The notes under the pieces are model-generated. The model saw only the letters and a list, made by a program, of their open reading frames with translations, had not been told where the DNA came from and did no database searches. From positions 28,804-92,803 of the forward strand of contig JANPHP010000034.1 in NCBI GenBank assembly GCA_031424495.1: DNA of 64,000 nucleotides. Direction: 5' to 3'. The position numbers and the translations under genes were made by a program. Below, one piece after another: positions 12 through 55,697 of the stretch (its first letter is position 1; each line of letters starts with the position of its first letter). This stretch comes from Bacteroidota bacterium. Its GTDB lineage: Bacteria > Bacteroidota > Bacteroidia > J057 > JADKCL01.

Positions 12-1280
12 TCAATTTGGTTTCATCACCTTGCCCATGAACAAGATGCTCCTGCTGGCGTTGTGCTGGATCATGAAGATGAAGGGGTGATCGGCGCGGA
101 AGTTCATGATAGGAGCTGGATCTTCGATGATTGCGCTGGTTTCTCTCACAATCACGGCCGTGGCTGCTGCCGCCTCGGTGCCCTCCTCATTGACCTCGAC
201 AAATGCCTTGTGGATCACATCGCTCACAGCAAAGCTGCCCCCGCCCAAAAACATGCGCGAGAAGTCGGCCTCGGCAAAGAGTCCCCCCAGGCCCATGGCC
301 TCAAGGGAGGGCTTGATGGAGCCGCCGAGCTCCATTTTGAAACGTGGCAGCCATACATTGACCTGCTGGTATCGCATTGCATTGCTGATTTCTGCCCAGC
401 GATCGGCGCTCAATTCCTTTTCCATTTTGGACATCGGGCCACTACCGGGCAGCAAGACGACCATCGAGAGGTCGTCGCCCTTGTAGGGCAATTGTAGCGC
501 TTGGAAGCCGTCCATCTCGACATAACGCAGCTTGTCTTCTGCAGCTGGCCGATACATCAAAGGCGCCTGCACCGATGCGTCACTGCCATCCTGCAAGTAA
601 AAAGGCAATTCTTGGGTGAGCTTTTTGTCGAATTCCAGCTTCCACTTGCCTTTGAAAAAAATCGCATTGGTGAGGACCATGCGCGTGTCGCTGCCGACAG
701 CGCCTGCGGGGATCAGGTTTTTGATGCGTTTGTTGGTTTGCTGCTCTACCCATGCATTGATTTTGAGGCGGGATTCCTCGCTTTTTTGGGCGAAGTCCAG
801 CGGGACAGACTCGCCATGGTAGGCTTTTTTGATAGTCGCGACAAACTCAGGATTGAGTTGCGCAGTTTTTTCGGGCCAGATGGCATTGGCGACAGCGAGC
901 GCGTAGGGAGCATCGGCGCGAGACAACGCTTGGGAAAGCTCGGCCAAGCCAGCGTGCAGGACGGCGGCCTCGGGTAGCCCGAGGGCCTTGCTGAGCAGTT
1001 CGAGCGTGCTGCCTGCCGCGCCCTCGCTGGTCATGGACAGGGCCGCCCACACGCTAAAAGGTGACATGAACTGGTTGGCGGCTGGTTTTTGAGCGGCCAT
1101 CTTTTGGTAAAGCTGGAAACCAAATTGGTTGCTGGCGCCTGCGACGGATTCGAGCGGGGTCGATTTGGGATTGATCACGAGCCGACAGGCGCTGACCCGC
1201 AGGGGTAACAGCAAGCACAATGCAGGGATCAGAAGCAGCAGGAAGCGCTTGGAGAGCTGAAGGATGGAATTTGGTTTCAT
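12..1280 (-). CDS. Serpin family protease inhibitor (secreted)
   Basis: 428-aa ORF with N-terminal signal-like segment and C-terminal serpin signature FRADHPFIFMI plus reactive-centre-loop hinge GTEAAAATA. First ATG is at 1280; the track start at 1298 is a TTG. Confidence 0.8.
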   Translation of the reverse strand: MKPNSILQLSKRFLLLLIPALCLLLPLRVSACRLVINPKSTPLESVAGASNQFGFQLYQKMAAQKPAANQFMSPFSVWAALSMTSEGAAGSTLELLSKALGLPEAAVLHAGLAELSQALSRADAPYALAVANAIWPEKTAQLNPEFVATIKKAYHGESVPLDFAQKSEESRLKINAWVEQQTNKRIKNLIPAGAVGSDTRMVLTNAIFFKGKWKLEFDKKLTQELPFYLQDGSDASVQAPLMYRPAAEDKLRYVEMDGFQALQLPYKGDDLSMVVLLPGSGPMSKMEKELSADRWAEISNAMRYQQVNVWLPRFKMELGGSIKPSLEAMGLGGLFAEADFSRMFLGGGSFAVSDVIHKAFVEVNEEGTEAAAATAVIVRETSAIIEDPAPIMNFRADHPFIFMIQHNASRSILFMGKVMKPN

Positions 1281-1612
1281 AAAGCTTTGATTTTTCAATG
1301 GGGTATCAAAATCTGATTTGGCCTAGTGGTGCTGCGCTGCACCAAATTGCACAAATGCTGGATCGCTTTTTTTCGTCCGATCACAAATCGCCCGATGTGA
1401 ATGATCTGCGCAATCCAATTGTCCTGACATTCAATGCTGCACAAAATACATCGCCTCAGCAAGCGCCGCCAACTGCCAATTGTGGAAAACTCTGCCCGCC
1501 CTATCGGCGACACACCTCAAGCAAGACTTGTGGGAAATGGCGTTGGCATATTGTAAAACAACCCTTTAGATTTATCACCGTAGAAGACCGTGGTTTTTAT
1601 CCTCGTATTGTT

Positions 1613-28745: not shown

Positions 28746-28859
28746 CTACCTAGCTTAGGAACGGATATCCCGCGCCAATTGTAGCGTCATGCCAGTTTTC
28801 GAAGTCTGCAAATTCTTCAGCCGTTCAGGGAAAAACTCCCCAAAAGCATCCTCAATCGA

Positions 28860-30804
28860 GTAGGAGAAAATAGAGACAGTTATTAGGCTGCTTCTATTTT
28901 CGTCCTCTCACACCACCGTGCGTACGGTTCCGTACACGGCGGTTCATCGGGCGTTTCCTCTTTGTTGGGTAAGGCTGCGATATCCTAGCTGCCCGAAGTA
29001 ATTGGTGTTGAGCGTGGTTTGCAGGATGGGTGAGGCTGCGATTCGCCACCCTCCCTTCCTCGTGCACGCCCATTGGAAGGCTTTGTCGGCGCTGACCCCC
29101 AGCTTTCTCAGCTCCTTGATTCTTGTGCGGACGCGTTTCCAGTCATGCCAGTGACAGTATCGCACGCGGCGGCGTGTCCATTCATCGATGGCCTCAAGTT
29201 TCTTGCGACCGTCGGCCAGCTTGAAGTAATTCATCCAGCCACCTGTCAGGTCGTTCAGCTTCTTGATCCGCGTGTGCATGGCATAAGGGCGTGTCTTGCG
29301 GGTGATCTCACGGATTTTGGCCTTCAGTTTCAGATAGCTTTTCTCCGCGATCCGCAGTGCCCATCTGCCTGTCGTCTTGTAGAAGCTGTGTCCAAGAACC
29401 GTGAACTTGGAGGGACGCCTGACGGCGCTCTTCTCCTTGTTCACTTTCAGTTTCAGTCGCTTCTCGATGAACATTGTCACACTCTCCAGAACACGCTTGC
29501 CCGCCTTCTCACTACCCACATAGATGCTGCAATCGTCGGCATAACGCACAAATCTAAGGTTCCTTGCCTCCAGTTCCTTGTCCAGCTTGTCGAGCAGGAT
29601 GTTCGACAACAGCGGGCTGAGCGGGCCACCTTGTGGCACACCTTCGTCGCTTTCAGTGAACACACCCCCGACCATCACGCCAGATTCAACGATGGCTCGG
29701 ATGAGTTTCAACACAAGCTTGTCCTCGATTCGCTGGCTCAGCAGGTTCAGCAAGTAGTCGTGGTTCACACGGTCGAAGAACTTCTCCATGTCCATGTCCA
29801 CCACCCAAGTGAAGCCTTCATTGACAAAGCTCGTCGCGACTGCAAGTGCTTGGTGTTGGTTGCGACCTGCCCGAAACCCGAAGCTATGGTCGGAAAATTC
29901 GGGCTCATACATCGGCGAGAGCACCTGATGGATGGCCTGCTGAATCATCCGATCCATTACCGTAGGGATTCCAAGAAGCCTCCCCCCCCCACTTTCCTTG
30001 CGGATTTCAACCCGCCTTACCGCTTGGGGCTTGTACTTTCCCTGCTTGATGCGCTCCCTGATATCGTGCCAGTGGACTTTACAGTAATCCAGCAGTTCGC
30101 TCGCCTTCATTCCGTCAACACCCGCAGCTCCGTCGTTTTTCACGACCCGCCGCAGGGCCTCGCCCATGTTCTCGCGTTCAAGTATCTTGTCAATCAAGTT
30201 CATGTAAACCTCCCAATACTTTGATTCTTGCGCCTCCTGTTCCTTTTCGCAAGCACGGGCTAAGCCCTCTTGGGTACTCCTCGGGTTCCACCCTACTCCT
30301 CCCCAAAAGCTCCTTCCTCAGATGGAAGGCTTGGCTGCCATCGGCCCCATGCCCAGATTCCAGAATGATCTGCGCTCCCGATGTTCGGCCCTTCACGGTT
30401 GCGATCTCTCCGTCCCTCACGGTTTACATCCCGCGGACGGCTCTTTTCCCCCGCTAATATGGCCTCGGCTGACTTCTGGGTACTCAGCGCAACGTCACCG
30501 CCACGGTTGCCCTCAACGAGCTTGTCCCCAGATCTCCCCAGGTAAGAACGGTCACTTTCCCTTCATGTGGCCTCCGCATCTACAACACAACGGTTCGGAT
30601 AGTATCGGACTTCGGCTTGTTTTGCAGCCTCGTCCACTGTTGCACTGCCTCCTATGCGGTTCCTGTTCGTAGGCCCGAAGGTTTGCCGCCAGCTTCCTTC
30701 AGATTCCGCCTCGCGGCGGACACCCTTGCTATTGGCTAATGCTTCCCACTATCAGGGCGCATTCGGGACTTTCACCCTACAGTTACCGCCCATGCTGGGC
30801 GCAC
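28860..30804 (-). mobile_element. Bacterial class C (IIC) group II intron, ~1.95 kb
   Basis: 5' GUGCG at 30804-30800 lies 9 nt after the aspS terminator hairpin/U-run. RT/maturase ORF inside domain IV. Domain V-like 14-bp helix with 2-nt bulge and CGC triad at 28913-28945 overlaps the ORF stop. Domain VI-like hairpin and terminal AC end at ~28860. Confidence 0.75.
28944..30203 (-). CDS. Group II intron reverse transcriptase/maturase (no endonuclease domain)
   Basis: RT motifs 0-7 including RYADDCSIY (YADD). Maturase X domain follows. No HNH/Zn-finger En domain. 419 aa is typical of IIC intron-encoded proteins. Confidence 0.9.
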   Translation of the reverse strand: MNLIDKILERENMGEALRRVVKNDGAAGVDGMKASELLDYCKVHWHDIRERIKQGKYKPQAVRRVEIRKESGGGRLLGIPTVMDRMIQQAIHQVLSPMYEPEFSDHSFGFRAGRNQHQALAVATSFVNEGFTWVVDMDMEKFFDRVNHDYLLNLLSQRIEDKLVLKLIRAIVESGVMVGGVFTESDEGVPQGGPLSPLLSNILLDKLDKELEARNLRFVRYADDCSIYVGSEKAGKRVLESVTMFIEKRLKLKVNKEKSAVRRPSKFTVLGHSFYKTTGRWALRIAEKSYLKLKAKIREITRKTRPYAMHTRIKKLNDLTGGWMNYFKLADGRKKLEAIDEWTRRRVRYCHWHDWKRVRTRIKELRKLGVSADKAFQWACTRKGGWRIAASPILQTTLNTNYFGQLGYRSLTQQRGNAR

Positions 30805-30869: not shown

Positions 30870-32633
30870 TCACCCCGGCAGCAAATCCTCCCGCACACCG
30901 ATGAACAGCGCGTCCAAGGCTTCGGTCTCGATCACGCTTGGGCTGTCGATCATCATGTCGCGGCCCATGTTGTTTTTGGGGAATGCAATGTAGTCGCGGA
31001 TCGAGTCGTCGCCGCCAAACATGGCGCTCAGGCGGTCGAAGCCAAAGGCGATGCCGCCGTGGGGCGGTGCACCATATTCAAAAGCGCCCATCAAAAAGCC
31101 GAATTGCGCCTGCGCGGCCTCGGGCGTGAAGCCCAGAATCTCAAACATGCGCTGCTGCAAGCTGCGGTCGTGGATCCTGATCGATCCACCGCCAAGTTCG
31201 ACGCCGTTCATCGTGAGGTCGTAGGCGTTTGCGAGCACGCTGCCGAGATTTTCACCTTTGATGAATTGCTCAAACTGCTCGGGCTTGGGCGAGGTGAAGG
31301 GGTGGTGCATCGCGAAGAATCGTTGGCTGTCCTCGTCCCACTCGAGGAGCGGGAAGTCGATGACCCACAGCGGTTGGAAAGTGTCCTTGGGACGCAAGCC
31401 CAGGCGGTTGGCGAGCTCGATGCGCAGGCTGCCGAGCTGCTTGCGGGTCTTCTCGTCCTTGCCGCAGAGCAGCAACAACAGGTCGCCCGGTTTGGCTTCC
31501 ATGCGGGTCGCCCAGGCCTTGAGGTCGCCTTCGTCATAAAATTTATCGACCGACGATTTCACCGAACCGTCGGCATTTACGCGGGCATAGATGAGGCCCT
31601 TTGCGCCGATCTGCGGAGCCTTCACCCAGTCGGTGAGGCCGTCGAGGTCCTTGCGCGTGTACTCGGCCGCGCCGGGTACGCAGATGCCCGCGACCAATTC
31701 GCTGTCGTTGAAGACGGCGAAGTCCTTGTGTTTGGCGATGTCGCTCAGGTCGCGGATCTCCATGCCAAACCGGATGTCGGGCTTGTCGCTGCCAAAGCGA
31801 TGCATCGCCTCGGCGTAGGTCATGTGGGGGATCTCGTCGAATTCCAAGCCTTTCAAGGTCTTGAACAAGTGGCGGAAAAGTCCCTCAAAAGTCTTCAAGA
31901 TATCGCTCTGCTCCACAAAAGCCATTTCGCAGTCGATCTGCGTGAACTCCGGCTGCCGGTCGGCGCGCAAATCCTCGTCCCTGAAGCAGCGCACGATCTG
32001 GAAATAGCGGTCATAGCCGCTCACCATCAAGATCTGCTTGAAGGTCTGCGGCGACTGCGGCAGGGCGTAAAACTGCCCGGGGTTCATGCGCGATGGCACG
32101 ATGAAGTCGCGCGCGCCCTCGGGCGTGCTCTTGATCATATAAGGTGTCTCGATTTCCAGGAAGTTGAGGCTGTCGAGGTATTTGCGCGTCTCGATGCCGA
32201 GGCGGTGGCGCAATTGGATGTTGCGTTGGAGCGGACCGCGACGCAAGTCGAGGTAGCGGTACTTCATCCGCAGCTGATCTTGGCCGTCGGTTTCCTCCTC
32301 GATGAGGAATGGCGGCACCTTGGATTCATTCAGGACGGCGATCGAGGTCGGGTTGATCTCGATGTCGCCGGTGCTCATCTTCGGATTTTTGCTCGTGCGC
32401 TCGGTCACGATGCCCGTGACCTTCACGACAAATTCGCGGCCGAGAGACTTGGCGATCTCGTAGAGGTCGGCTTTGTCAGAATCTACATTCACCTGCGTGA
32501 TGCCATAACGGTCACGGATATCGACAAAATTGAAGTGACCATGGTCGCGCGCCTTCTGGACCCAGCCAGCAATCGTGACTTCTAGACCGACATGTTCAAT
32601 GCGGAGTTCGCCGCAGGTGTGTGTACGATGCAT
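30870..32633 (-). CDS. aspS: Aspartate--tRNA ligase
   Basis: N-terminal OB-fold ([25 protein letters not shown]), class II motifs ([18 protein letters not shown]; GGGSIRIHD...Q). ATG at 32633. Confidence 0.9.
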
Positions 32634-32814
32634 ATATGTGCAGATTTTTTGGAGGTGCAAAGATAGCGATTTTGGTTGGGAGGATGGCGGCAGGGGAATG
32701 AAGAATTTGGAGGAGCGAGGCGAGGGCCTCTGGCCCAACGCCGATCGACCTCCAGCCTCTGGCTGGCGAGAATAGAAACACTACCAAAAACTCATCCACC
32801 AGAAACCCATCCAC

Positions 32815-35871: not shown

Positions 35872-36155
35872 GAGCAGAATTCGAGCAGAATTCTCAGAAT
35901 TTACTGAATCACTTAGCGTGTTGAATTTTGGGTGGCTAATGGGCGCCTAGAATTCAACACTTTTTTTGAGTTCTGCACGGAATGTAATCACTCTTGAATA
36001 GTGCCACACCAGGTATCGGGTCACTATTATCTCACAGCATCACAACTTCAGCAATGCCAATGCAACAATAAGGGCGATTCAGAGGATTCTGAATATTCCA
36101 CTCAGAATTCAACACTATGCTCTGTTCTGTAAATTCTGAAAATTCTGCTCCTGCT
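35872..36155. repeat. MITE-like element: inverted ~60-bp GAATTCTG-rich terminal repeats flanking ~160 bp
   Basis: 35872-35935 is the reverse complement of the CCACCCARAATTCAACAC...GTAAATTCTG-RAATTCTGCTCC unit found forward at 36096-36155, 43284-43336 and 55643-55697. It fills the gap exactly between the lpdA stop and the OMP stop. Confidence 0.55.
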
Positions 36156-36156
36156 C

Positions 36157-36846
36157 CTAGAACATCACATTCAGCGACAGATTGTTCAGTGGCTGATAGA
36201 TGGTTTCGAAGTAGTTGTTGGAGCGGGCGTAGGTGCTGGTCTCGGGGGAGATTTGCGAGATGCGGGTGCTGCGGCCGATGAACATGAGGTCCATGCAGGT
36301 CTCGGCACTCACAGAAATTGCATATCCCAAATAACAACGCAGGCCCACAACAGGGCTGATGCCCATGCCGCGACGGGTGCGGTTGTCGGTCGACTCGCGG
36401 TAGTTGAGGGTGCTCACGCTATAGGTTTCGCCTGAATATTTGCCAAACATGCCCACCACATCGATGCCAGCGTAGGGCTCAAAAGGGCCCATGATTGCAA
36501 ACCATTCATAACCCATGCGCAGGGTCACACCTGAGACTTTGCCCTCAGTGCGCAAACAATCGGGGCAATTGCGACGGTTTTCATACTGGTATTTGGTGAG
36601 GGCTAGCCCGGTGCGAAATGCACCGAAAGTGCCGTAGCGCTTGTAGTGGATGCCATTGAAAAAACCGACGCCCAAGGTCTGCTCGGCGGCATGGATGCCC
36701 CCGAAATTGCTGGCGTTGGTGACGCTGCCGAGACGTACGCCGATCTCATTCACGGGCATGCTGTTCGCGCCGCACTGTGCTTGCAGACTGCCAAACATGG
36801 CCGCCGACAGCAGCAAAAACATTCCAATTTTCGTTGCAATTCGCAT
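36157..36846 (-). CDS. Outer-membrane beta-barrel protein (OmpW/porin-like, unknown function)
   Basis: Signal peptide MRIATKIGMFLLLSAAMFGSLQAQ. Amphipathic beta-strand periodicity, C-terminal aromatic (…LSLNVMF). Confidence 0.65.
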   Translation of the reverse strand: MRIATKIGMFLLLSAAMFGSLQAQCGANSMPVNEIGVRLGSVTNASNFGGIHAAEQTLGVGFFNGIHYKRYGTFGAFRTGLALTKYQYENRRNCPDCLRTEGKVSGVTLRMGYEWFAIMGPFEPYAGIDVVGMFGKYSGETYSVSTLNYRESTDNRTRRGMGISPVVGLRCYLGYAISVSAETCMDLMFIGRSTRISQISPETSTYARSNNYFETIYQPLNNLSLNVMF

Positions 36847-40845: not shown

Positions 40846-42762
40846 ATGGGAGCAAATCAACTATTGGCCTTCTGGTGGGTACTTCCTATCGTGGCTAGCC
40901 TGGTATTTTACAAAATCGTTTTGCGGTTTTTCTTCGGCATGGTGATCGTGCCCGAAAGCAAGACCGGCCTCGTCACCAAAAAGTTTGTGCTTTTTGGGGC
41001 AAACAAGGAACTGCCCGATGGGCGCATCATCGCCACCCAAGGGGAGGCTGGTTTTCAAGCCAAGACCCTCGCACCGGGCATCTATTTCTGGAAATGGATG
41101 TGACAGTATGAAATCAAAATGGAAGAATTCACGGTGATCCCAGAGGGCATGATCGGCCTCGTGCTCGCCCGGGACGGTGCGGAGATTCCCACAGGTGGCA
41201 TCCTCGCCCGCAAGGTGGATTGTGACAACTTTCAAGACGCCGAGCACTTCCTCACCAATGGCGGTCAGCGCGGCCGCCAAACGACTTACATCACAGCAGG
41301 TTCTTACCGCGTGAACACGCTCTTGTTTCACGTCACGATCGCCAGCATGGTGCGCATCCAAGAAAGCATGATCGGCATCATCACCACGCTCGATGGCGAG
41401 CCGATCGAAAGCGGGCAGATTGCTGGCAAGCTCATCGAAGGGCACAACAATTTCCAGGACTTCGACCATTTTTTGCAGCACGGCGGTAACCGTGGCCTGC
41501 AACCACAGGTCATTCTCTCCGGCTCCTACAACCTGAATCCGTGGGCGGTGCAAGTCGAGGAATGCCGCATGACCGAAATCCCGATCGGCTATGTTGGGGT
41601 GGTAATTTCCTACATCGGCCAAGACGGCATGGACCTCACCGGCGTCGACTTCAAGCATGGCAATATCGTAGAGAAGGGCTACAAAGGCGTCTGGGCAGAG
41701 CCGCTCGGTCCTGGTAAATATGCGATCAATAAGTACACGATGAAGGTCGAGCTCGTGCCCACGACCAACCTGGTGCTCAACTGGGCCACGGCGCGCACCG
41801 AGTCCCACAACCTCGACAAGAACTTGAGCACAATAACTGTGCGGTCTCGCGACGGCTTCCCCTTCAACCTCGATGTCTCGCAGATCATCCACGTGCCCAA
41901 TATCGAGGCCCCCAAGGTCATCGCCCGATTCGGCAACATGACCAATCTGGTGTCGCAGGTGCTGGAGCCGACGATCGGCAACTACTTTCGCAACTCGGCG
42001 CAGGAAGCAGACGTGATCGCCTTTCTCACCACACGCAAGGAGCGGCAGGAATCGGCCAAGCGGCATATCAAGCAGGTGCTCGACGAGTACAACGTGAATG
42101 CAGTGGACACTCTGATCGGCGATATCGTGCCGCCTGACTCTTTGATGAAGACGCTCACGGACCGCAAGATTGCTGAGGAACAGAAGGTGACCTACGAGAC
42201 CCAGCGCGAGGCGCAAGAAACCCGCCAAGGGATGGAGAAGGAAACGGCCATCGCCGATATGCAGCGGCAGATCGTGAGCGCACAGCAAAGCGTGGAGATC
42301 GCCGAGCGCACCGCGAGTGCTGCGGTGAAAAAATCTGAAGGCGAAGCCGCAAGCGTGAAGCTCAATGTCGGCGCCGAGTCCGAAGCGACCAAGTTGAGGG
42401 CCCATGCCGAAGCGGAGGCGATGCTCGCCAAGGCGCAAGCCGAGTCGCAATCGGTGAAGTTGCGCGCCGACGCGCATGCACGGGAGATCGCGCTCACCGG
42501 CGACGCCGAGGCTGGCAAGATCCTAGCGATCGGCAAAAGCACGGCCGAGGCCTACCAACTCGCGGTGGGGGCATTGGGAAGTGAAAACTTCACGCGCTTC
42601 AAAATCACAGAGGAATTGGCCAAGGGCCACATCAAGCTGATGCCCGAGGTCCTGATCGGCGGCGGCAACGGCCAAGGCAACGCCATGGAAGGCATGCTGG
42701 GATTGAGGCTGCTAGAAATGATGTCCCCGGAGAATCACAATTTACAGAATTCCGAGAATTGA
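40846..42762 (+). pseudogene. Flotillin-like SPFH-domain protein interrupted by a single in-frame TGA (40846..41103 + 41119..42762, same frame)
   Basis: The 85-aa upstream ORF carries the N-terminal TM anchor and the start of the SPFH domain. The 547-aa downstream ORF continues the SPFH domain and flotillin-like E/A/Q-rich coiled coil. They are separated only by TGA at 41101-41103 and 5 codons, in the same frame. Confidence 0.55.
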
Positions 42763-43345
42763 GCGTCGAGTCGAATTCTGGGTGGTCATGGGCTGAGGGA
42801 TGATTTATGATTGTCTCAATCCACTCAAAAAGAAAGGCGAGCTTCACAGCTCGCCTTTCAAATTCCTATACAAGTCCTACCTCATCAAACAGAATTGAGC
42901 ATAATTTGATCAGAATTTGATCAGAATTTACAGAATTCGCAGAATCGAGCATGGTGTCGAATTCTGCGCATAATTTATAGAATTCAAAGAATCGAGCGTG
43001 GGGTTGAATTCTGGATGATTAATAGGTTGCATGTTGCAGCCCTAAGCAACTCCAAGAAGCAAGAAAGGCGAGCTTTGCGGCTCGCCTTTCAAATTCCTAT
43101 TCCAAGTCCTACCTCATCACACAGAATTTGATCAGAATTTTCAGAATTCGCAGAATCGAGCATCGTGTTGAATTTTGGGTGGTGACGGGCTGAGGGATGA
43201 TTTATGATTGTCTCAATCCACTCAAAAAGAAAGGCGAGCTTTGCGGCTCGCCTTTCAAATTCCTATTCCAAGTCCTACGTCATCACCCAGAATTCAACAC
43301 GCTAAGTGATTCGGTAAATTCTGCAAATTCTGCTCCTTAGAGGAC
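42745..43345. repeat. Complex tandem/inverted repeat array (~200-bp units with terminator-like hairpin) plus GAATTCTG-family terminal element
   Basis: Three copies of ...ctgagggatgatttatgattgtctcaatccactcaaaaagaaaggcgagcttYRcRgctcgcctttcaaattcctatWcMaagtcctac... (42790-42895, 43050-43130 partial, 43190-43300). They are interleaved with cagaatt(c/t)g / gagcRtSgtgtYgaatt motifs. The array overlaps the last codons of the flotillin-like gene and the stop of the downstream minus gene. Confidence 0.6.
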
Positions 43346-44719
43346 GATGATCTTTTGGGTGGTTGCGCGGCCTTGGGCATCGCGCAGCTCGACAAAGTAC
43401 ATGCCCGACTGCATGCCTTCGCGGCTGATCTCGGTGCGGTTGGTGGTGAGACCCTTGCGATCGAGCACGACCTGGCCAGTCACGCTGATGACGCTGATGT
43501 CATAGGTGCTACACTCCCAGCAATTTACTTCGATCACGGTAGAGGTGCTGAAGGGGTTGGGGTAAACCGAGAAGCTGGAAGCAGTTGCAACCGAGGTTCC
43601 GACGACGACAGTACAAGCATTGTAATCCCAGATCGGGAGGATAGTGTCGGTGAGCTGACCGGTGATGTTGAGCACGCGGTTGAAGCCACTGATACCGTTG
43701 CTAGCGCCGCAGCCGAGGGCGAGGAAATTGGCCGTCTCGCCGTCTGGATCGCCTTGGTTGCCGTTGTAAAATTTGAATTGGTATTCGCTAGGAACGATGC
43801 TTTGTGTGATCTCATAGACGAAATCGCTGTTGGCGTCGGTCATGAGCAGGGTGTCCTTGACCCAAGCTGGGTTTTGGAATGAGCCAGCCACAAAGAGGCC
43901 ATTGACGTTCACGATTTCATTGCTCATGTTCACGCGGAAGGTCACGTTGATTGCAGGAAGCGGGGCAACGCAAGCAGCTGCGCAAGATGCAAAGCAGTGA
44001 ACTGGGATCACTTGTGGGCCTGGGCCTGCGACGATGACTTCACGGTTGTTGTTGACAGCGCAGCCGCTAGGCACGCTCTCGTCGGTACCCCAAGCGGCGC
44101 CATTCAAGTATTTGTAGGCATAGGTACCTTCTGGCAGACGCACGGTGAGGGTATAGATGCTGTCGTTGTTTGGATCGGAAAGCACGGTGGAACCGGGGGT
44201 CCAGTCGCTCCAACCTGCGCCGGGAACGTCGCCTTGGAAGTCACCTGCTACAGACACAGTTGGGGCGATCGTGCGATAACGCATGTCGACTTGGAAGGTC
44301 ACGTCGACGGTGTCGACGACAGTTGGGCAAGCGGCACACTGACCGAAGCATACCACAGGGATTGTTGTGGCTCCAGAAACCGTGAGACCACGGTTGCCAT
44401 TCACTTGGCAAATGCCAGGTACGCCTTCGTCGGTGCCCCATGCAGCGCCATTGAGAAACTTGTACTCGTAGGTACCTGCAGGCAACTGCACTGTGATGTC
44501 ATACACGCCGTCTGAATTGGCGTCGGTGAGGATCGTCGAGCCTGGAGTCCAGTCCGAAGGGAAACCAGCGGCTGCTTGGAAGCTACCAGCAACCGACACA
44601 GTGTCGTCCACGACTGCCACTTGGCTCATGTCCACCTGAAAGGTGACGGCAAAGTTCTGCGCCATGGCAGACAATGTCGCAACCAGCAAAAGGCAAAGTG
44701 TAAGGTAAATTTTTCTCAT
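43337..44719 (-). CDS. Secreted protein with three ~95-aa repeated domains and T9SS C-terminal sorting domain
   Basis: Signal MRKIYLTLCLLLVATLSAMAQ. Three repeats (FQVDMS...GAAWGTDE...P...C). Por-type CTD (…VYPNPFSTSTVIEV…GMYFVEL…). Confidence 0.7.
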   Translation of the reverse strand: MRKIYLTLCLLLVATLSAMAQNFAVTFQVDMSQVAVVDDTVSVAGSFQAAAGFPSDWTPGSTILTDANSDGVYDITVQLPAGTYEYKFLNGAAWGTDEGVPGICQVNGNRGLTVSGATTIPVVCFGQCAACPTVVDTVDVTFQVDMRYRTIAPTVSVAGDFQGDVPGAGWSDWTPGSTVLSDPNNDSIYTLTVRLPEGTYAYKYLNGAAWGTDESVPSGCAVNNNREVIVAGPGPQVIPVHCFASCAAACVAPLPAINVTFRVNMSNEIVNVNGLFVAGSFQNPAWVKDTLLMTDANSDFVYEITQSIVPSEYQFKFYNGNQGDPDGETANFLALGCGASNGISGFNRVLNITGQLTDTILPIWDYNACTVVVGTSVATASSFSVYPNPFSTSTVIEVNCWECSTYDISVISVTGQVVLDRKGLTTNRTEISREGMQSGMYFVELRDAQGRATTQKIIVL

Positions 44720-44939
44720 AACCTGTATTTGATTCAAATTGAAACGATACAATGCAAAGTGTGTATATGACACTAAGTTAAGTACAAATAACCATTTCAC
44801 ATGCAAAAAAAATTTGACCAGCCTACAATTGCCCTAAAATCAATCTTGTCCTCATGGCTGTACAGGAAAAATATTGCCGATCGCTCTGAATTGTTTAGCA
44901 TTGTGCCATCGCATTTTCAGTACACATGAGGCTGCAACT

Positions 44940-52168: not shown

Positions 52169-53311
52169 ATGTCTGAAATCCACGCTTCGTTGTCATTCAA
52201 CCTCGATGTCGGCCTCATACAGGCTGCGCTGCCGCTGTTTGCGGCCGAGGAAGTCGAGGCTTTGGAGTGGTCATTTGACACACTCTTCCAGCAGCCCGAG
52301 CTGCCGGATTGGTTTTTGGAGCTGCTGCAGACCTACGGCGATGTAGGACGACTCGTCGGGCACGGGGTCTTTTTTTCTCTGTTTTCGGGGAAATGGCTGC
52401 CTGAGCAGGCGGCTTGGTTGCGGGAACTCCGCGACCTGACGCAGCGTTTTCGCTTCGATCACATCAGCGAGCATTTTGGCTTTTTGACAGGTTCTGATTT
52501 CCACAAGGGCGCGCCCCTGTCTGTGCCCTACAATGCGCAGACGCTGGCGATCGGGCGCGACCGCCTCATGCGCATCGCGGAGGCCAGCGGCTGCCCGGTC
52601 GGTTTGGAAAACCTCGCCTTTGCCAGCAGCACGCAAGCTGCACAGGTGCATGGCGAATTTCTGGAAGCACTGCTGGCGCCCGTGAATGGCTTCGTGATCC
52701 TGGACTTGCACAACCTCTATTGTCAGCTCCACAATTTTGGGCTGGATGCGGCCGAAATGCTGGCGGCTTTTCCGCTGGCGCGGGTGCGCGAGATCCATAT
52801 CTCGGGCGGCAGTTGGGAATCCTCGGCGCATCGCCCGCACCCGGGCGTGCGGCGCGACACGCATGACGATCGCGTGCCCGAGGAGGTGTTTGCGCTGCTT
52901 GCAGATGCGATGCCCCGCTGCCCCAACCTCAAATTTGTGGTGCTGGAGCACATGGGTTTTGCATTGGCCACCGAGCAGACACAAAGTTATTACCGCGATG
53001 ATTTCAGGCGGATGCGGGCGCTCGTGCATGCGGAGAAAGCGCGGCGCAATACGACCACGCATTCACCCACGACCAATCTATTCTTGCCGCCGTCGCTTAA
53101 TCTGGGAACAGCGCCGCTGGAAGACGCGTCCCTCCATCAACAACAACAAATCCTCTCCGACATCCTGGAAACAAGCGAGTCGCTCGCGGCAGTCCAATCT
53201 GCGATCAGACATTCGCCCCTCGCCGACACGGATTGGGACATTGCGACTTGGGACCCGGCGATGCTGGAGACGGCGTGGCTCATTGCAAGGAAGTGGCGGG
53301 ATGGGTTTTGA
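52169..53311 (+). CDS. DUF692 / multinuclear non-heme iron oxidase (MbnB/ChrH-like) with ~90-aa C-terminal extension
   Basis: TIM-barrel DUF692 blocks in order: LEWSFDTLF, LVGHGVFFSL, FDHISEHFGF, VGLENLAF, VILDLHNLY, REIHISGG…VRRDTHDD. Extra C-terminal ~90 aa (…LHQQQQILSDILETSESLAAVQSAI…) is not part of the core. Confidence 0.75.
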   Translation: MSEIHASLSFNLDVGLIQAALPLFAAEEVEALEWSFDTLFQQPELPDWFLELLQTYGDVGRLVGHGVFFSLFSGKWLPEQAAWLRELRDLTQRFRFDHISEHFGFLTGSDFHKGAPLSVPYNAQTLAIGRDRLMRIAEASGCPVGLENLAFASSTQAAQVHGEFLEALLAPVNGFVILDLHNLYCQLHNFGLDAAEMLAAFPLARVREIHISGGSWESSAHRPHPGVRRDTHDDRVPEEVFALLADAMPRCPNLKFVVLEHMGFALATEQTQSYYRDDFRRMRALVHAEKARRNTTTHSPTTNLFLPPSLNLGTAPLEDASLHQQQQILSDILETSESLAAVQSAIRHSPLADTDWDIATWDPAMLETAWLIARKWRDGF

Positions 53312-55642: not shown

Positions 55643-55697
55643 CCACCCAAAATTCAACCCCAAAAGTGATTCTGTAAATTCTGAGAATTCTGATCTG
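55643..55697. repeat. GAATTCTG-family ~55-bp intergenic repeat element
   Basis: ccacccaaaattcaaccccaaaagtgattctgtaaattctgagaattctgatctg, directly abutting the GTG start of the DegT-family gene. Confidence 0.55.

Follow-up and report, generated by a model that had tools for sequence, protein, structure and literature searches.

The repeats discussed here are best approached from two described systems. The first is that of repetitive extragenic palindromic (REP) sequences, of which those between convergent open reading frames (ORFs; conv-REPs) are less than 20 bp away from each ORF; REP termini often supply the stop codon, and some REPs lie inside genes (Di Nocera et al. 2013, PMC3733652). The second is the GxxExxY/PDDEXK_3 protein family, which is classified as being of unknown function and as having undergone multiple transfers (PMC3424549). 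The locus in question lies in a 64,000-nt stretch of a Bacteroidota genome (assembly GCA_031424495.1, contig JANPHP010000034.1, positions 28,804 to 92,803), the whole of which is called the window, and consists of a block of short phased repeats and strong hairpins between two convergent genes. The best-supported view of this block is that a non-coding interspersed repeat, specific to the lineage and of the kind of REPs and miniature inverted-repeat transposable elements (MITEs), has accumulated locally. More specifically, and with a probability that we put at about 0.6, the array would consist of gene-less REP/MITE-like derivatives of the ends of elements carrying a GxxExxY gene, expanded in place together with the terminator of the neighbouring type IX secretion system (T9SS) gene by recombination at the repeated heptads.

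The block fills an AT-rich spacer of 574 bp (42763–43336; GC content 43%, against 53% for the window) between a gene for an SPFH/Band_7 protein and one for a protein with a T9SS tail and an X25 domain. Its characteristic unit is a module of approximately 53 nt, GAGCAGAATTnnCAGAATTnnCAGAATC-N13-TTGAATTCTGGGTGG, in which three direct CAGAATT heptads at a 9-bp phase are followed, across 13 nt of spacer, by a single heptad in inverted orientation and by GGTGG; heptad runs with an 11-bp period are also found next to modules. A profile search (nhmmer) places five modules in the array, four on the plus strand (starting at 42734, 42919, 42968 and 43130) and one on the minus strand (43284–43335), and 14 of the 31 CAGAATT/AATTCTG heptads of the window fall in the spacer. 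The order of the features, with reference to two orthologous loci, L007 in a related metagenome-assembled genome (MAG) and L032 in a metagenome contig, is the following.

40846–42762, plus strand: SPFH/Band_7 (flotillin-like) gene, Pfam Band_7; stop codon at 42760–42762.
42734–42786, plus strand: heptad module M1, nhmmer score 44, 5′ end degenerate, fused to the SPFH coding sequence at ..CCGGAG/AAT; repeat family D1.
42787–42885: core A copy 1 with terminator hairpin 1 (42832–42859), 94% identical to 43187–43283, terminator-like on the minus strand.
42886–42918, plus strand: CAGAATT/CATAATT heptad run with an 11-bp period, beginning with the CAGAATT at 42890, at which core A copy 1 stops.
42919–42968, plus strand: heptad module M2, nhmmer score 52, 93% identical to M4 over 56 nt.
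42968–43016, plus strand: heptad module M3, degenerate (CATAATT, TAGAATT, AAGAATC), nhmmer score 37; D1, 77%.
43017–43121: core B, made of a unique left half, hairpin 2 (43063–43090) and a shared right half, terminator-like on the minus strand.
43122–43182, plus strand: heptad module M4 (43130–43182) with an extra heptad before it at 43122, nhmmer score 56, left arm of a complete MITE-like unit.
43183–43283: core A copy 2 with terminator hairpin 3 (43229–43256); orthologous hairpin in L007 and L032.
43284–43335, minus strand: heptad module M5, the closing inverted copy, nhmmer score 54, sense to the T9SS gene and orthologous to solo modules in L007 and L032.
43337–44806, minus strand: gene for a T9SS-secreted X25/CBM protein, Pfam X25_BaPul_like and Por_Secre_tail; stop codon at 43337–43339; same synteny in L032.

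Since Tandem Repeats Finder returns only periods of 9 and 11 bp across the block (the latter with 4.6 copies at 42890–42937) and the hairpins are spaced by 231 and 166 bp, the block is a composite and not the regular tandem array of ~200-bp units that an earlier, sequence-only reading had described. That reading had also quoted a unit, ctgagggatgatttatgatt..., as present three times; it is found in the first and third hairpin units, whereas the middle one has a different left half, in agreement with the composition of core B, of which 43061–43117 is 98% identical to 43227–43283 while the left half has no match. M4 and M5 form an inverted repeat (I1, 43130–43335) with 58-nt arms, 79% complementary, separated by 90 nt. 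The description of intergenic repeats with strong hairpins, which occur in three copies with none expected in shuffled sequence, holds, as does that of CAGAATT motifs interleaved with the hairpin units. A CRISPR array is ruled out, as had been stated from the start, by irregular spacings (47–231 bp), by ‘spacers’ that are themselves repeated and by the inversion of the closing copy. The end of the SPFH gene is indeed encoded by repeat sequence, with nine codons (NHNLQNSEN and the stop codon, from M1) rather than the eight first counted; the T9SS stop codon, by contrast, lies 1 nt outside M5 and not within the repeat. Finally, the family exceeds the limits first given (42745–43345), reaching 42734 on the left and including two further loci of the window (35872–36157 and 55643–55695).

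The hairpins, formed by GAAAGGCGAGC, a loop of 4–6 nt and GCTCGCCTTTC, have folding energies of −20 to −23 kcal/mol (−23.1 kcal/mol, z −5.0, for hairpin 1; −20.1 kcal/mol for hairpin 3, with a UUUUU tail on the minus strand), and the T-run (TTTTT) stands 3′ of the hairpin on the minus strand only, giving three minus-strand terminator-like matches. Among all fetched DNA, the hairpin recurs as one orthologous copy each in L007 and L032, downstream of the same T9SS gene. From this single orthologous copy at the same position and the minus-strand T-run, the hairpin is therefore taken to be the intrinsic terminator of the T9SS gene. The 60-bp core containing it, whose copies the sequence-only reading had proposed to count across the genome, has no further copy in the window and no match in an exact-pattern scan of 185,579 representative genomes (one per species), so that the hairpin core as a dispersed family is rejected; its absence elsewhere was the very outcome that the sequence-only reading had named as telling against itself. 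Judged from the sequence, the hairpin units are a local duplication of one gene's terminator, triplicated here. Hairpin 3 is the first terminator reached by the T9SS transcript, and the three stacked terminators would all serve this gene. To see the whole block as a purely local tandem duplication, with no dispersed family behind it, is scarcely tenable: the hairpin segments are local duplicates, as this explanation requires, but the heptad module also occurs elsewhere, at two further loci of the window and on 29 other contigs, and local duplication thus holds for the hairpin segments only.

The strong hairpins with a U-tail had also led to the proposal of a tandem family of small terminator-containing RNAs, and small structured RNAs, or cis-acting elements of 3′ untranslated regions (3′ UTRs), each with its own terminator, could be envisaged more generally. 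In support, inverted pairs of modules at two loci (L008 and L014) form palindromes of ~90–110 bp that fold at −45 and −51 kcal/mol (z −8 to −9.6), and REP-type repeats are often transcribed within 3′ UTRs (PMC3733652). A single module, however, has no stable consensus fold (RNAalifold −0.67 kcal/mol; z 0.04) and shows no covariation, the 27-nt palindrome of heptads 3 and 4 being paired in 82.6% of cells against 81.3% in column shuffles, with 52 of 500 shuffles equal. The Rfam scan that had been suggested finds no family at threshold in the array (best score 25 bits against a 60-bit threshold; nothing in the region at gathering thresholds), the hairpin unit forms no family and there is no excess of sigma-70-type promoter-like sites in the block; the Bacteroidota TAnnTTTG promoter motif was not found there by eye, no tool having been run for it. 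A set of small RNAs is accordingly very improbable. Paired modules give a long AU-rich hairpin, which would probably affect termination or the stability of the 3′ end of the mRNA.

In contrast to the hairpin core, the heptad module is dispersed. A search pattern of 45 nt with 24 fixed bases matched 20 contigs in three Bacteroidota MAGs (one of them labelled Saprospiraceae) and nine metagenome contigs, including activated sludge; 14 of these 29 outside contigs belong to one MAG. Many of the matches sit at contig ends, and the modules offer an explanation for assembly breaks in these MAGs. No match to the full pattern was found in viral contigs, plasmid collections or phage collections. A loose triple-heptad pattern, CAGAATTNNCAGAATTNNCAGAATT, matched 72 viral contigs (L033–L104), many of them giant-virus MAGs and some with runs at 27-bp spacing; these matches, possibly 9-nt coding repeats (Q-N-S-like), were presumed to be unrelated to the module and discarded. 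Within the window, modules occupy three loci, namely the array and the following two.

35872–36157: second heptad element, with a plus-strand module (35872/35883–35935), an unrelated 162-bp core and a minus-strand module (36098–36156).
55643–55695, minus strand: solo module that stops, on its outer side, 1 nt short of the GTG start codon of a DegT/DnrJ aminotransferase gene.

The first of these lies between two convergent genes, one for a Pyr_redox_2 dehydrogenase and one hypothetical, and exactly spans the gap between their stop codons; four to five modules are found at the orthologous gene end in L003. The position of the second implies that the DegT/DnrJ promoter and 5′ end lie inside the repeat, or that the mRNA is leaderless or co-transcribed. 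Taking all loci together, modules occur as solo copies, as inverted pairs, as inverted pairs around a core and as same-orientation arrays closed by one inverted copy (five modules in L011, four in L003, three in L012), the array of the window being of this last type. Units range from 90 to 290 bp and contain no long ORF; they are thus small, non-coding and dispersed, as MITEs are, and terminal inverted repeats delimit them at 43130–43335, 35872–36157, L008 and L014, while many copies are solo or direct. The initial suggestion of a nest of MITE/REP-type elements therefore named the right kind of element, but took the hairpin for the family and treated as filler the heptad module, which is the dispersed part. 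Outside its three loci the heptad is not enriched in the window (nine seen, ~6 expected), and a genome-wide uptake- or Chi-like motif is rejected on this count.

A different kind of cargo was seen in L017 (2349–4737), where a PtuA-like AAA_21 ATPase gene and a PtuB-like HNH gene (a Septu-like pair, both under the NCBIfam cut-offs) stand between a T9SS gene and tsaD with inverted modules on both sides; in a second MAG (L018, 1–576), the HNH-like gene and the module on the T9SS side are also present.

In 16 of the 35 outermost module ends, no more than ~5 nt separate the first heptad block from the stop codon of an ORF with at least 100 codons; when each recognized orthologous pair is counted once, this becomes roughly 13 of 31. 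These stop codons are of all three types and sometimes overlap the first bases of the module. Five or more further ORFs have their end within a module, no stop codons precede the modules in the interior of arrays, and a few module ends adjoin start codons instead (55695, next to the GTG mentioned above; L021). The junction TAAG/GAGCAG recurs at orthologous and at other loci. Modules thus share with REPs an extragenic position near the 3′ ends of ORFs, but not the stable stem-loop, a 20–40-nt imperfect palindrome. Paralogous modules at different loci of this genome are 48/53 identical (M5 versus the module at 35883), compared with 40/53 for the orthologous pair of the window and L007, in which the flanking coding DNA is 79–83% identical. 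The higher similarity of paralogues than of orthologues indicates recent copying or gene conversion.

The alternative that modules are host cis-elements, in which phased heptads bind a chromosomal DNA- or RNA-binding protein (as a 3′-end or terminator signal, a roadblock or a nucleoid site) and are kept by selection at gene ends, has to be weighed at this point. The heptads are phased at about one helical turn, modules are kept at orthologous gene ends across genomes that are ~80% identical and, at such ends, the module is sense-oriented, directly after the stop codon and ahead of the terminator. Against this, modules stand at only three loci among ~45 genes of the window, next to functionally unrelated genes and without enrichment of the heptad elsewhere; some adjoin start codons or are antisense, their number differs between orthologues and they have overwritten coding sequence. 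The same kind of heptad ends also travels with a horizontally transferred gene in other phyla, as detailed below. A host signal is for these reasons rather improbable.

How coding sequence came to be overwritten can be followed by comparing the locus with its orthologues. Both L007 and L032 have an SPFH gene that retains its full C-terminus (...MDPEQKSAKP...), followed after ~170 nt by a single terminator, a single sense module and the junction TAAG/GAGCAG with the T9SS stop codon; two more distant relatives have neither the T9SS gene nor a module. SPFH homologues are 630–650 aa long and 10 of 10 end with ..MDPExK followed by 10–20 aa, whereas the protein of the window ends with ...MSPE- and the nine module-encoded codons. 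Since the ten homologues and both L007 and L032 keep the MDPExK tail, the state of the window is derived. The junction comes after a GAG; at this point the orthologue L007 reads GAGCAAAAAT and the module starts with GAGCAGAATT, which suggests recombination at microhomology. Each hairpin segment terminates at a CAGAATT (42890, 43122 and 43288), and beyond this breakpoint only the last segment runs into the inverted module, the other two continuing into sense heptads; the difference between 43288 and 43122 is the 166-bp period. On these grounds, the ancestral state would have been a T9SS stop codon, one sense module, one intrinsic terminator, ~170 nt of spacer and the SPFH gene. A facing module would then have been added and, by recombination at the GAGCA microhomology, have taken the place of the dispensable C-terminal tail encoded by the 3′ end of the SPFH gene, and the ‘module + terminator’ segment would have been duplicated twice by unequal exchange between heptads. 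Since CAGAATTCTG is palindromic, exchange is possible in either orientation, and the 166-bp period and the CAGAATT breakpoints are as expected from such unequal exchange.

The SPFH gene also contains an in-frame TGA (41101–41103; FWKWM-stop-QY versus FWKWMWQY, with Trp in all ten homologues), because of which its listed ORF starts at 41119. The TGA, which is also the normal stop codon of this gene, could be due to an error of sequencing, to recoding or to the gene being a pseudogene; taken with the C-terminus that stems from the repeat, it suggests that the gene may be decaying. An exact-sequence look-up of the protein gave no record.

The link between modules and a candidate enzyme comes from ten fetched contexts of GxxExxY genes, two of them selected by the DNA pattern (L015 and L028, in which a 125-aa GxxExxY/PDDEXK_3 gene stands between heptad elements) and eight by protein similarity alone, drawn from two subfamilies. 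The latter are listed with their neighbours.

L105 and L108 (Saprospiraceae): downstream of a carboxyl-transferase-domain gene.
L114–120 (MAG labelled Deltaproteobacteria): beside an Eco57I-like gene.
L121 (Roseimarinus): between hsdR and hsdM.
L123: between leuC and leuD.
L125: between ilvC and a methyltransferase gene.
L127 (Verrucomicrobia MAG): between nuoD and a Fer4 gene (nuoI-like).
L128: between an ABC ATPase gene and an FtsX permease gene.

Phased heptad repeats flank the GxxExxY gene in 10 of 10 contexts, in Bacteroidota, Verrucomicrobiota and the MAG labelled Deltaproteobacteria. Up to 200 nt from the gene, heptads number 16.4 per kb, against 0.39 per kb in the remainder of these loci, as computed on 11 loci of which two were pattern-selected and several are orthologous. 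The heptad is CAGAATT, but one side of L028 has CAGGATT and L127 has CGGAATT, with the 9-bp phasing unchanged; the termini are mostly GTCTGAATCAGAATTnnCAGAATT...AATTCTGATTCAGAC, those of L127 and L128 being different, and the full module pattern matched the element upstream of the L015 gene. GxxExxY elements occupy the gap from the upstream stop codon to the next start codon, even inside tight operons (L121, L123, L125, L127 and L128), and several leave only 0–3 nt before the start. The upstream stop codon is often a TGA within GTCTGA, or is found a few codons into the repeat, generating a ...QNSQN tail before the stop that is like the repeat-derived tail of the SPFH protein.

As for the encoded protein, it belongs to the PDDEXK_3/TIGR04256 families, with an invariant D...ExK motif (D66, E76, K78), and its predicted structure (mean predicted local distance difference test score, pLDDT, of 77) has Cas4 and lambda-exonuclease-type nucleases as top structural matches, so that it looks like an active nuclease. 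A sequence search of the PDB retrieved no relative. The proteins are 72–94% identical across MAGs labelled Saprospiraceae, Deltaproteobacteria, Paludibacter, Prevotellaceae and others, and literature searches on the heptad, GxxExxY, PDDEXK_3, PF13366, TIGR04256 and similar elements returned incidental mentions only.

With these data, the parent of the repeats in the window may be pictured as a compact element in which a gene for the ~125-aa GxxExxY (PDDEXK_3) nuclease of the PD-(D/E)XK fold lies between phased-heptad ends. The modules of the window would descend from such ends, and the nuclease would bind or cut them and mobilize gene-less modules in trans, as a REP-associated tyrosine transposase (RAYT) does with REPINs (REP doublets) or a transposase with MITEs. 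In addition to heptad sequence and phasing, the connection draws on the direct pattern match in L015 and on the shared placement behaviour. What the sequences themselves establish is the anatomy of the array, the dispersal of the module, the derived state of the locus, the breakpoints at heptads and the association of gene and repeats; the descent of the modules from such ends, the action of the nuclease on them and any influence on RNA are inferred.

Several observations weigh against this scheme. No GxxExxY gene is present in the 64-kb window or in 19 fetched loci of the two module-richest MAGs, so that a trans-acting partner in this genome is hypothetical. The modules of the window start with GAGCAGAATT, and not with GTCTGAATCAGAATT, and have the extra spacer and GGTGG part; the module profile recovers GxxExxY flanks only with E values of 2e-5 to 5e-3, and homology between the two kinds of ends is read mainly from heptad sequence and phasing. 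There is neither a target-site duplication nor a clean filled/empty pair for a single module; we infer movement from dispersal, orthologue comparison and paralogue similarity, the last of which gene conversion alone could explain. No 125-aa PD-(D/E)XK protein is known to act as a stand-alone transposase, and the GxxExxY gene may instead simply travel with the repeats as a favoured passenger.

The last possibility is part of an alternative in which a classical insertion sequence (IS) with a DDE transposase, located elsewhere in the genome, has the modules as its multi-site terminal inverted repeats, the GxxExxY gene, the Septu-like pair and the terminator all being passengers. Several transposon families typically carry repeated binding sites in sub-terminal position, the modules do form complete units whose inverted arms are 58 nt long, and the 2.4-kb segment of L017 has PtuA/PtuB-like genes between two inverted modules. 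Because the orthologue L018 carries the same cargo, however, the Septu-like pair is uninformative on mobility, and it is rejected as evidence for a cargo transposon. Solo modules at conserved orthologous sites and same-orientation arrays are common, which does not fit this alternative, and the presence of GxxExxY in all ten contexts, eight of which were selected on the protein, is too consistent for a random passenger. The flanks of complete units and of GxxExxY elements have no common direct repeat; duplications of TA, TNA or CTAG were considered and rejected, the flanks being inconsistent and the ‘TA’ part of stop codons. No transposase is encoded by the 45 large ORFs of the window (housekeeping genes and one group II intron reverse transcriptase) or beside any module. 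A classical MITE with a distant transposase is thus regarded as unlikely.

No GTAG or CGTC tag is found at module ends, the outer ends being (G)GAGCAG or GATCAG and GTAG occurring once by chance (L011), and a tblastn search of the window and of 32 loci with an IS200 TnpA query gave no match to a Y1 gene. As regards integron attC sites, no GTTRRRY core was seen at the ends by eye and no integrase is found among the ORFs of the window, no search with an attC model having been made; the modules bracket convergent genes.

The window also contains features other than the repeats. A group II intron (28855–30720, minus strand), with Rfam matches for D1–D4 and D5/6 and a reverse transcriptase/maturase ORF (28947–30203), lies ~150 nt downstream of an aspS-like gene (30873–32738) and encodes the only recognizable mobile-element enzyme of the window. 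A full-length serpin gene (15–1298, minus strand) and a gene for an MbnB/TglH/ChrH-type enzyme modifying ribosomally synthesized and post-translationally modified peptides (52169–53308, plus strand) are unrelated to the repeats.

Returning to the derivation of the array from GxxExxY-element ends, the consequences for the locus itself are modest, in that one terminator has been triplicated and the C-terminus of a neighbour rewritten by repeat DNA; for annotation, the array should be labelled neither as CRISPR nor as small RNA. The more general lead is a very common, horizontally transferred family of small nucleases flanked by phased-heptad ends in every fetched context. We propose tentatively, and with more doubt than conviction, that GxxExxY (TIGR04256/PF13366) is the mobility enzyme of unrecognized compact (~0.5 kb) selfish elements with phased 7-bp repeat ends (CAGAATT, CAGGATT or CGGAATT according to lineage), which insert, within operons too, into the few nucleotides separating the stop codon of one gene from the start codon of the next, cause no target duplication and spawn gene-less REPIN/MITE-like offspring such as the array of the window. 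If so, a REPtron-like system would be run by a nuclease fold not known as a stand-alone transposase, and a new enzyme class may be added to the theme set by REP/RAYT and MITE/transposase pairs. Similar gene-less ends populate genomes in the manner of REPs and MITEs, which makes GxxExxY function directly testable, and elements set hard against stop and start codons raise the question of how insertions into operons are tolerated.

Comparison with known systems helps to place the components. The hairpin corresponds to a Rho-independent (intrinsic) terminator in its GC-rich stem of 11–12 bp (AAAGGCGAGC...GCTCGCCTTT), in its loop of 4–6 nt, in the TTTTT tail on the T9SS strand and in being kept at the orthologous site after the same gene; it differs in being present in three copies through segmental duplication and in its poor tail on the plus strand.

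Free-standing homing endonuclease genes resemble the GxxExxY genes in that a small nuclease gene is set precisely between conserved neighbours (as with leuC and leuD, nuoD and the nuoI-like gene, or hsdR and hsdM), with a patchy distribution across phyla and very high protein identity. I-Ssp6803I is a PD-(D/E)XK enzyme among free-standing homing endonucleases. Homing endonuclease genes normally have no repeat-bearing inverted ends and are not known to leave gene-less repeat copies, unlike what is seen and proposed, respectively, for the GxxExxY elements.

Bacterial MITEs (Correia/NEMIS, ERIC, RUP) and their parent ISs have in common with the heptad elements units of 110–290 bp with inverted ends, a dispersed and intergenic distribution, the ability to carry terminators or to fuse to ORF ends and a gene-carrying relative with similar ends. 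In contrast, the modules lack a target-site duplication, their ends consist of repeated copies of a 7-bp motif, they often occur as solo ends or in direct arrays, and the gene-carrying relative encodes no recognized transposase.

With respect to REPs, bacterial interspersed mosaic elements (BIMEs) and REPINs with their RAYTs, the modules differ by the absence of a GTAG or CGTC tag, by consisting of ~53 nt of direct heptads instead of a GC-rich palindrome of 20–40 nt, by the lack of a stable hairpin in a single module and by an associated gene that encodes a PD-(D/E)XK nuclease and not a Y1 (HUH) transposase. They agree in being short non-coding units that occur singly, as inverted doublets or in clusters, extragenic and mostly between convergent or co-directional ORFs, a few nt from ORF 3′ ends (PMC3733652), in sometimes supplying the stop codon or lying in ORFs (PMC3733652), and in causing no target duplication. 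Copies within a genome are homogeneous in both cases and, as in a REPtron, the gene for the putative enzyme is itself flanked by the repeats.

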